DNA from: an uncultured Solirubrobacteraceae bacterium
Lineage (GTDB): Bacteria > Actinomycetota > Thermoleophilia > Solirubrobacterales > Solirubrobacteraceae
NCBI GenBank assembly: GCA_963701145.1
Contig: OY969572.1
Span: forward strand, 2,405,387-2,469,386
Length of the DNA: 64,000 nucleotides
Direction: 5' to 3'
A program made the position numbers and the translations under genes. The notes beneath the pieces were generated by a model. It was not told the DNA's origin. It did not search any database and saw only the letters and a program-made list of their open reading frames with translations. Shown in pieces: positions 25,743 to 26,513 of the stretch. How positions within the stretch are numbered: position 1 is the stretch's first letter; each line of letters starts with the position of its first letter.

Positions 25743-26513
25743 TCAGGACTTCAGGTTCTGGACGATGGCTTCCTCGGTTTCCGTGATCGTCCTCATGATG
25801 TTGGACAACGTCTGCAGGAGCTTCGAGCGCGTATCCATCAGCATCTGCAGCTGCATGCTGGTCATCTCGGAGATCTCGTTGTCGGAGTCGAGGTCGTTTT
25901 GGAGCGTCGAGACAGCGTTCGCGACACTGCTGCCGGTGACGGGCTTGGTGAGTGTGAGAGGCGCCACGCCGATGGGCATCAGCTCCCCGATCGCGTCCTT
26001 GAGTTCGGGCAGTTCTTCGACGCTCGGCTTGAGGAGCTTCAGGCTCGTTGCGATGTCGACGCGGAAGCCCGGTAGGTGGCGCACCGCGAACCGCTGCTGG
26101 ATGCGGAAGTAATTGGTCTGCTGCACCTGCTCTTTCTCCAGCTGCGAGGAGAGCGAGGCCAGGCCGCCAAGCGCTGAGCTGAGCTGGGCGCTGATCGCCG
26201 ACGAGGAAGCGCCCAAGCCGCCGGACCCTGAGGACCCAGCCGCACCCTGGAGTCCCTGGGGGCCTGTTGGCCCTTCCTCGCTCCACGTCACCTCGTGCGC
26301 GCCCTTCGACGGACAGGTCGCCTCTGTTGGGCCGGACGGATCGGACAAGATCACGATCTCGCCTGTCGTATTGGTGACGCAACCGAGGATCGTGTCCGAC
26401 CCGGCGGCCCCTGCCTGAGTAATGCTCACCGTCACCACCGAGGCGATCACGGCGCCCGCCGTGACGGCGACGCCGATCTTGAACCATTGGCTTGAGACAG
26501 CACGTGCGATCAT
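25743..26513 (-). CDS. Secreted protein with short collagen-like segment and needle/filament-like C-terminal helix
   Basis: Hydrophobic N-terminus; ILGCVTNTTGEI..C..VTWSEEGPTGPQGLQG; C-terminal DLDSDNEISEMTSMQLQMLMDTRSKLLQTLSNIMRTITETEEAIVQNLK. Confidence 0.7.
   Translation of the reverse strand: MIARAVSSQWFKIGVAVTAGAVIASVVTVSITQAGAAGSDTILGCVTNTTGEIVILSDPSGPTEATCPSKGAHEVTWSEEGPTGPQGLQGAAGSSGSGGLGASSSAISAQLSSALGGLASLSSQLEKEQVQQTNYFRIQQRFAVRHLPGFRVDIATSLKLLKPSVEELPELKDAIGELMPIGVAPLTLTKPVTGSSVANAVSTLQNDLDSDNEISEMTSMQLQMLMDTRSKLLQTLSNIMRTITETEEAIVQNLKS

Follow-up and report, generated by a model that had tools for sequence, protein, structure and literature searches.

A portable C-terminal domain with weak but specific likeness to the needle subunit SctF, at the end of a predicted Sec-exported, collagen-like protein from an uncultured Solirubrobacteraceae bacterium

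A 64,000-nucleotide stretch of DNA from an uncultured Solirubrobacteraceae bacterium (GenBank assembly GCA_963701145.1, contig OY969572.1, positions 2,405,387 to 2,469,386 of the forward strand; hereafter the window) carries on its minus strand a gene for a 256-residue protein, whose C-terminus belongs to a large family of protein ends resembling in sequence part of SctF, the needle subunit of type III secretion systems (T3SS). The family is unnamed, and the term CTD (C-terminal domain) is used here for its last 48-55 residues. In the reading that we favour, and to which we give about an even chance, the CTD would be an SctF-related module for self-association (homo-oligomerisation or assembly), and the window protein an elongated, rod-like protein exported by the Sec pathway. 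The signal peptide of this protein would be followed by a small module, probably closed by a disulfide, then by a few collagen-like triplets and a presumably trimeric coiled-coil stalk; the CTDs would hold the chains together at the C-terminus, with the variable N-terminal part left free. The many unrelated carriers would be served by the CTD in the same way, whether cytoplasmic, periplasmic or extracellular. The likelihoods expressed in words for this and for the other readings are rough weights given to partly overlapping possibilities, and they are not intended to sum to one.

The modular character of the CTD emerges from database comparisons. In 62 of the 65 matches to the window protein only the last ~50-60 residues are shared, C-terminal in each case and preceded by unrelated N-terminal parts. 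A profile (A1) built from 61 such ends and searched against 1.84 billion representative sequences returned at least 2,387 clusters (50% identity) at E<=1e-3, with 1,230 at E<=1e-10, and in all of the 150 best representatives (64-595 residues) the match ends within three residues of the C-terminus. The CTD is also C-terminal in every genomic open reading frame (ORF) of the family except L045. The window protein belongs clearly to this set, its C-terminal 60 residues matching the family profile with E ~1e-31, and alignment of its small subfamily with the typical family by hhalign joined 55 CTD residues and nothing else (E 1.5e-27). Since only the CTD aligns between subfamilies and its C-terminal position is fixed, it is, as judged from these comparisons, a discrete portable domain borne by many unrelated N-terminal parts, which bears out the suggestion of a first-pass annotation of the window that the terminal helix might be a portable module.

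Members of the family occur in more than 12 bacterial phyla. A narrow peptide pattern alone retrieved 123 loci from a one-genome-per-species set of GTDB, distributed among Acidobacteriota, Bacteroidota (many of them Chitinophagaceae), Alpha-, Beta- and Gammaproteobacteria, Actinomycetota, Chloroflexia, Aminicenantes, Rokubacteria, Verrucomicrobiota, Planctomycetota, Gemmatimonadota, Myxococcota and Patescibacteria, plus one metagenome-assembled genome (MAG) of Methanoregulaceae. The genes in this archaeal MAG (L054) and in a Patescibacteria MAG (L082) reflect horizontal transfer or contamination, and the label of a 'Bordetella parapertussis' MAG with a CTD gene (L040) is probably a binning or labelling error because the neighbouring genes are of Chitinophagaceae type. 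Some members of 64-81 residues (P0074, P0070, P0162, P0185, P0159, P0082 and P0086) barely exceed the CTD and have the size of T3SS needle subunits; they may be truncated metagenomic ORFs. A mobile or defensive origin was considered and rejected: no CTD match was confirmed in 2.9 million IMG/VR contigs and none was found in PHROGs, a tblastn search of 72,556 plasmids was without match, and so was PADLOC. There is no model of the CTD family in Pfam or NCBIfam, nor did the literature searched yield a paper on the family or on its link to the needle helix, so that the family appears to be unannotated and the link unreported in that literature. For SctF itself, sequence similarity has been reported to FliC/FlgL only (Abby and Rocha, PMC3459982).

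Across 242 unique copies of the CTD, residues L12, D13, E17, E20, M21, S23, L26, Q27, M28, M30, D31, S34, K35, S41, K45, T50, N57 and K59 are conserved at 93% or more, K59 being invariant. The window CTD retains L208, D209, E213, E216, M217, S219, L222, Q223, M224, M226, D227, S230, K231, S237, T246, N253 and K255 at these places, and the sole near-invariant position that is changed in it is family K45, here Arg241. Between positions 12 and 35 the near-invariant residues, many of them polar, cover ~220 degrees of the helix surface. This exceeds what could be buried in a monomeric two-helix hairpin, and therefore suggests that the conserved surface makes contacts between subunits or with a partner. 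In typical members the CTD is paired with an N-terminal helix carrying the motif D[IV]E.LAF[VI]VLM.A..DA..DL, which is optional in the family. The motif is missing from the window protein when its subfamily is compared with the typical family (hhalign), and a proposed homology between that helix and helix 102-146 of the window protein was rejected by the same type of profile comparison.

The likeness to SctF was assessed with an alignment of five needle subunits, MxiH, PrgI, BsaL, YscF and PscF, whose sequences were checked against PDB entries (PscF over its C-terminal 31 residues). Alignment of the CTD with this set by hhalign gave Prob 80% and E 1.4e-5 over 55 columns, with the C-termini of both aligned and a 5-residue gap required at the needle turn, and with the needle C-terminal helix alone the values were Prob 88.6% and E 2.6e-6. 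The score of 30.6 has to be compared with 9.4 +/- 1.8 (maximum 14.9) for 200 column-shuffled needle alignments, with 11.6 and 13.3 for reversed profiles and with 8-12.7 for natural helices taken from the same proteins. As the shuffled, reversed and natural-helix controls all score far lower, the likeness is specific rather than compositional. The two families resemble each other over their C-terminal ~35-55 residues, in register to the last residue, in the pattern Q...S...K...I.QN(F/L)(R/K), and in both this stretch is an amphipathic helix, rich in polar residues, that ends the protein. The Q, S and I that are invariant in needles fall on CTD-invariant Q27 and S41 and on conserved I54, and needle QNF(R) falls on QN(L/I)K.

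Curated models place the likeness in the same register. The needle family PF09392 was matched by 25 of 61 CTDs, all sub-threshold, with a best E of 6.7e-6; for full-length relatives the scores were 13-23 bits (cut-off 29.4), the last residues always being covered by the profile as far as position 70/71, and 14-22 bits with TIGR02105 (cut-off 41.7). With a hidden Markov model (HMM) of the five needle sequences, the best match lay at the very C-terminus in 170 of 196 family proteins, and 43 proteins exceeded all reversed decoys. The window protein obtained 5.9 bits, its residues 220-254 falling in register on profile positions 52-86. At the level of sequence profiles the likeness of the CTD family to SctF is thus weak but specific, and the CTD may be distantly related to the SctF C-terminal helix, with descent and convergence both possible. 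The needle resemblance proposed in the first-pass annotation therefore stands for the family (hhalign E 1.4e-5 with negative controls) and not for the window protein taken singly, which reaches no needle model.

Predicted structures add a second, less exact comparison. AlphaFold2 (AF2) renders the CTD of the window protein as a single continuous helix (194-255) with a predicted local distance difference test score (pLDDT) of 88-96, within a model that, from a 44-row alignment, has a mean pLDDT of 63; a Foldseek search with this low-confidence model gave no significant match. A typical member, P0036 (30-row alignment), was modelled with pLDDT 85.8 and a predicted template modelling score (pTM) of 0.72 as a long antiparallel hairpin formed by helix 14-66, a small beta-hairpin and helix 120-180, with the CTD as the C-terminal arm. 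Searched against the PDB, it returned nothing at E<=1e-3, and nothing useful came from the viral structures of BFVD. At the head of its non-significant matches stood flagellins (9lah_AA, with prob 0.93 and TMq 0.58), the filament of EspA (7khw_A, at E 0.15), the tip protein IpaD and FlgL, which share with typical members, as predicted, a long antiparallel hairpin of N- and C-terminal helices with an insertion at the tip. The differences are that only weak matches link flagellin and EspA to CTD members (E>=0.08), with generic hairpins scoring comparably, and that the window protein has no Pfam match of flagellin or EspA type and does not possess the N-terminal helix of typical members. Moreover, of the 41 Pfam families matched by the 61 CTDs, the 25 that most CTDs matched include neither Flagellin_C nor EspA. 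These fold neighbours are weakly consistent with the sequence likeness to SctF.

Several observations weigh against an SctF-related assembly module. The window protein shows no match to PF09392 at E<=10 and none to TIGR02105; the CTD profile searched against the PDB met no needle protein at E<=10, returning chance matches such as the immunoglobulin J chain; and weak matches of coiled-coil type, for instance to Cep57, indicate that part of the CTD signal is generic. The AF2 model gives an uninterrupted helix from which the needle-type turn is missing, and all Foldseek matches of P0036 lie above E 0.01 and take in V-ATPase D/G, prefoldin and other long hairpins of a generic type. In addition, the all-round conservation of the CTD is equally compatible with the binding of some conserved partner, and seven G-X-Y triplets may not suffice for a stable triple helix. 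Some of these points, namely the missing needle match in the PDB search and the coiled-coil matches, together with scores that all fall under the curated thresholds (13-23 against 29.4 bits, and 14-22 against 41.7 bits), would be expected if amphipathic helices had converged and the CTD were a coiled coil of generic type with no relation to SctF. Convergence in this sense, which concerns the homology claim alone, is a minority possibility to be taken seriously, against which stand the controls scoring far under the real alignment and a match that runs end to end in register with coinciding invariant residues.

Whatever the origin of the likeness, the window protein lies outside the SctF family as defined, from which it departs in size, in the turn, in gene context and in export route. 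Needle subunits have 70-90 residues, whereas the window protein has 256; they are exported by the T3SS without a Sec signal, whereas the window protein has a Sec-type N-terminus that is conserved in its relatives; and the hairpin turn of needles, P-(S/D)-(D/N)-P, has no counterpart in the window protein, which contains no PxxP and is predicted to form one continuous helix in this part. The CTD family as a whole scores under the SctF family thresholds, the window protein being undetected by PF09392 and TIGR02105, and a T3SS gene cluster (SctV/N/R/S/T/U/J/C and needle chaperones) is not seen around CTD genes, either among the 30 annotated genes of the window or among the annotated neighbours at related loci. 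The phyla with the CTD include some that are not known to carry injectisomes. The window protein is no part of a T3SS, nor is it exported by one.

A stricter version of the needle analogy, and the main idea of the first-pass annotation, would have Sec-exported CTDs stacking head-to-tail into an open helical filament like that of EspA or the T3SS needle, its C-termini facing inward and its collagen-like N-terminal part exposed on the surface. The sequence evidence from hhalign, PF09392, TIGR02105 and the needle HMM applies equally to such a polymer. In needles the lumen is lined by the C-terminus, the N-terminus faces outward, and polymerisation depends on the last five residues of the subunit; an extreme C-terminal CTD behind a variable N-terminus fits this geometry, CTD K45, N57 and K59 align with the needle K, Q/N and R, and the fold neighbours of P0036 are filament subunits. 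We nevertheless consider this polymer rather unlikely, given that the predicted helix is continuous and without a PxxP turn, that the Foldseek scores are non-significant, that relatives devoid of a signal peptide, some of them fused to DNA-binding domains, fit a filament poorly, and that a trimeric collagen or coiled-coil stalk is mismatched to a polymer of ~5.5 subunits per turn, as the needle is. Still more doubtful is the broader proposition that the CTD family is a free-living, self-polymerising relative of SctF, with which many bacteria, monoderms included, would make T3SS-independent filaments or fibres out of Sec-exported or cytoplasmic proteins. If true, a filament of the window protein would display the collagen-like stalk, and the injectisome needle would either have been recruited from an older, wider-spread module or be the source from which that module escaped.

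The carriers of the CTD point to self-association. Among its partners are collagen-like parts, ParD-like DNA-binding domains of the ribbon-helix-helix (RHH) type, an Hcp-like fragment and plain signal peptides. Sec signal peptides are clear in most diderm members, and they are missing in members from Actinomycetota and Solirubrobacterales and in one from Acidobacteriaceae. The Hcp case is P0013, in which residues 71-108, N-terminal of the CTD, match the Hcp family of type VI secretion systems (PF05638, 25.8 bits, cut-off 23.5). A sizeable subgroup (P0051, P0057, P0060, P0069, P0085, P0094, P0126, P0139, P0191, L053 and L081) carries an N-terminal ParD-type RHH domain (TIGR02606, E 5.7e-11), and in L081, of 112 residues, RHH and CTD are all there is, which suggests that the CTD is used for oligomerisation. 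RHH repressors such as P22 Mnt tetramerise through a C-terminal coiled coil. By analogy of sequence organisation, the many CTD members composed of a ParD-type RHH domain, helices and the CTD resemble Mnt-type repressors, suggesting an oligomerising role of the CTD in RHH proteins; the window protein differs from them in having no RHH domain. A reading of the RHH fusions as parts of ParDE toxin-antitoxin pairs was unsupported, no toxin gene following directly after the L091 fusion. Another member without signal peptide, P0046 (447 residues; L004, 3234-19063), has a long low-complexity N-terminus and is encoded within at least 10 successive genes on one strand that have no Pfam match, beside a small protein with a faint tetratricopeptide repeat match.

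As some relatives lack a signal peptide or carry an RHH domain while others have Sec signals, the CTD works inside as well as outside the membrane. This speaks against a secretion tag, the other function proposed in the first-pass annotation, and against an exclusively extracellular role. The fixed position at the extreme C-terminus of many unrelated proteins is what one would expect of a signal for export or sorting machinery, like the C-terminal signals of type I or type IX secretion systems. This function is very improbable for the CTD, however, as Sec signal peptides are already present in the window protein and in most of its diderm relatives, the RHH fusions are cytoplasmic, no transporter is conserved near CTD genes (~85 loci), and the family spans phyla with very different envelopes. 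The CTD is, besides, far more conserved than known C-terminal secretion signals usually are. Diverse N-terminal partners point instead to oligomerisation as the common need, and self-association is the simplest function that a collagen-like stalk, RHH repressors and periplasmic hairpin proteins could have in common; hence the reading of the CTD as an oligomerisation module. Collagen-like chains require a nucleating oligomerisation domain. We infer, from these sequence relationships, that the CTD self-associates, and a portable assembly tag is the best-supported part of what had first been proposed for the helix.

Gene neighbourhoods were compared at ~85 related loci, where the CTD gene is solitary. 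Clustering of all neighbours revealed no neighbour family shared across phyla, and no secretion-machine gene was found beside the CTD among the annotated neighbours, most neighbours being clustered but unnamed. The absence of both fits a self-sufficient module. In 14 Bacteroidota loci, 12 of them from Chitinophagaceae/Chitinophaga, the CTD gene lies directly upstream of dnaK (Hsp70, 892 bits; among others L018, L031, L047, L061, L064, L067, L069, L079, L080 and L086, around 8000-10300), and in Aminicenantes it adjoins a beta-lactamase-like gene; both arrangements are lineage-level synteny only. Locus L080 holds two tandem CTD genes (7413-8165 and 8270-8986).

These neighbourhoods bear on one further possibility, in which the CTD would dock its N-terminal cargo onto a widely conserved heterologous partner, be it a protein, an envelope component or a metal. 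Such a docking function would explain the very high cross-phylum conservation with near-invariant polar residues on most helix faces, and solitary genes in varied contexts would be in keeping with it, as would the position directly upstream of dnaK in the 14 Bacteroidota loci, mostly of Chitinophagaceae, and a Met-rich stretch (MNEMSEMTSMRLQMAM) found in part of the family. This stretch is, however, less marked in the subfamily of the window protein, no adjacent partner gene is conserved in the cross-phylum comparison, and the partner would have to be present in the cytoplasm as well as in the periplasm or extracellular space. Docking is in our estimation a minor possibility, on a par with the needle-like polymer.

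The features of the window protein and of its gene are collected in Table 1.

Table 1. Features of the CTD gene in the window and of its 256-residue product (all on the minus strand)
Feature	Residues	Window coordinates	Strand	Basis or remark
Shine-Dalgarno AGGAG		26520..26524	-	6 nt 5' of the ATG; read from sequence
Signal peptide or signal anchor, Sec-type (MIARAVSSQWFK / IGVAVTAGAVIASVVTVSI / TQA-GA)	1-34	26412..26513	-	sequence
Two-cysteine module GCVTNTTGEIVILSDP...C...HEVTW (Cys45, Cys67)	38-80	26274..26402	-	sequence, relatives
Short collagen-like run, seven G-X-Y triplets	81-101	26211..26273	-	sequence
Long helix, probable coiled-coil stalk	102-146	26076..26210	-	AF2 pLDDT 74-81; hydrophobics 3-4 apart
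Linker, poorly ordered, two short helices	147-193	25935..26075	-	AF2 pLDDT ~48-55; indels among relatives
Needle-like CTD (conserved core 208-255, 25749-25892)	197-256	25746..25925	-	family HMM, AF2
TGA stop		25743..25745	-	one residue (Ser256) past invariant Lys255; sequence

The elements that had been read from the letters alone, a Sec-type hydrophobic N-terminus, the module GCVTNTTG...C...VTW, consecutive G-x-x triplets and the quoted C-terminus, are all present, the last exactly as quoted. They are beyond chance, because P0002, P0003 and P0116 keep the parts in the same order (37-59% identity to the window protein) and because of the score of the C-terminal 60 residues with the CTD family profile. 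The full architecture is common to only P0001/P0242 (near identical), P0002 and P0003 (56-59% identity) and P0116 (37%), whose C-terminus is more typical of the CTD family, and a search with the N-terminal and middle part returned only this same small subfamily. Searches of Pfam, NCBIfam, PHROGs, PADLOC and PDB sequences gave no curated family for the protein as a whole.

The first 34 residues comprise an N-region with positive charge, a hydrophobic core of 19 residues and the sequence TQA-GA, from which cleavage past A34 is predicted on account of the small residues at -3 and -1. The hydrophobic segment is kept in P0002 and P0003, and the N-terminus of P0116 is hydrophobic too. In the module that follows, C, G, DP, C, HE and W are invariant across four relatives, AF2 places a beta-hairpin (42-47/53-57) at low confidence, and Cys45 and Cys67 probably form a disulfide; the module occurs once in the window. 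Distant relatives of it (P0198-P0203; E 2.7e-5 to 0.56 in a database of 5.8 billion sequences) have a signal peptide and the pattern C(V/Y)N..G.(I/L)R(I/V)...C...E..L.WNQ immediately before long collagen repeats, with PF01391 in two. As the module precedes collagen repeats in these proteins, the N-terminal third of the window protein is recognisable, by comparison with them, as the head of a bacterial collagen-like protein with a very short run of triple-helix type.

The triplets themselves, GPT GPQ GLQ GAA GSS GSG GLG, are uninterrupted, and their number varies among relatives (5-8, with 8-9 in P0116; P0002 has an additional GPQ as an indel). The window protein and the collagen-like proteins (PF01391; Scl, BclA, Lcl) are alike in having a signal peptide, a two-cysteine module and G-X-Y triplets that begin straight past a conserved Trp. 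They are unlike in that the window protein has seven triplets and no PF01391 match in the Pfam search, its match to Lcl is weak (E 0.017), and its coiled coil and CTD are not found in the collagen-like relatives, which are fragments of ~100 residues. The description 'collagen-like' is owed to only seven triplets, and the protein itself does not match PF01391.

The ORF is a real gene, with a Shine-Dalgarno site, a GC content of 0.82 at third codon positions and full-length relatives. It extends from the ATG at 26513 to the stop codon listed in Table 1; this start is backed by P0003 and P0002, whose alignments begin at the same Met, and makes an alternative, longer GTG start at 26594 unnecessary. 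The codon-position GC of 0.61/0.50/0.82 is typical of coding sequence in a GC-rich window (63-74%, ~69%). Sequence of the window was found again in peat and soil metagenomes. At 26251, a natural A>G variant in the peat metagenome run X1 and in P0001 changes Leu88 to Pro at the X position of a triplet (GLQG to GPQG), and one run of undefined type yielded a 225-nt contig identical to the CTD region.

Thirty of the ~40 genes in the window were annotated, and among these 30 no T3SS, flagellar or other secretion genes were found, in agreement with the first impression of the locus. They include LuxR-STAND regulators, PucR, hydrolases, a P450, a cellulase of glycoside hydrolase family 9 (GH9), a split TrwC relaxase, an integrase and a transposase. 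The GC content (~69%) and the DUF4232, LuxR-STAND and PucR genes make the monoderm actinobacterial host assumed in the first-pass annotation plausible. The gene of the window protein has an epoxide hydrolase gene upstream and, directly downstream after a gap of ~150 nt, a gene for a secreted DUF4232 protein with a hydrophobic N-terminus and its own GGAGG (25018-25590, minus strand); the next gene (24164-24946) encodes a protein with a signal peptide and without Pfam match. Judged by their N-termini, these genes would form a small run encoding exported proteins.

Elsewhere in the window, a TrwC-type relaxase is split over overlapping ORFs (7661-8842, minus strand, TrwC 4-211; 5800-7770, minus strand, TrwC 204-282 plus AAA_30) and is adjoined by a tyrosine integrase (9753-11135, minus strand), which together look like a decayed integrative or conjugative element. 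A DDE_3 transposase-like ORF (49566-50594, plus strand) is more evidence of mobile DNA. An ORF of 1,116 residues (28650-32000, minus strand) encodes an unusual fusion of a major facilitator superfamily transporter, a cyclic-nucleotide-binding domain and a patatin-like phospholipase.

For annotation, the CTD is a domain missed by current Pfam and NCBIfam models that accounts for hundreds of 'hypothetical proteins'. Should it be merely a coiled-coil oligomerisation domain, its description would be useful and ordinary. If, on the other hand, common descent with SctF is true, the needle polymerisation helix would occur outside secretion systems in a large family still without annotation, which comprises at least 2,387 clusters from more than 12 phyla. 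The CTD would then offer both a compact natural assembly tag of 48-55 residues and a testable handle on the origin of the injectisome needle.

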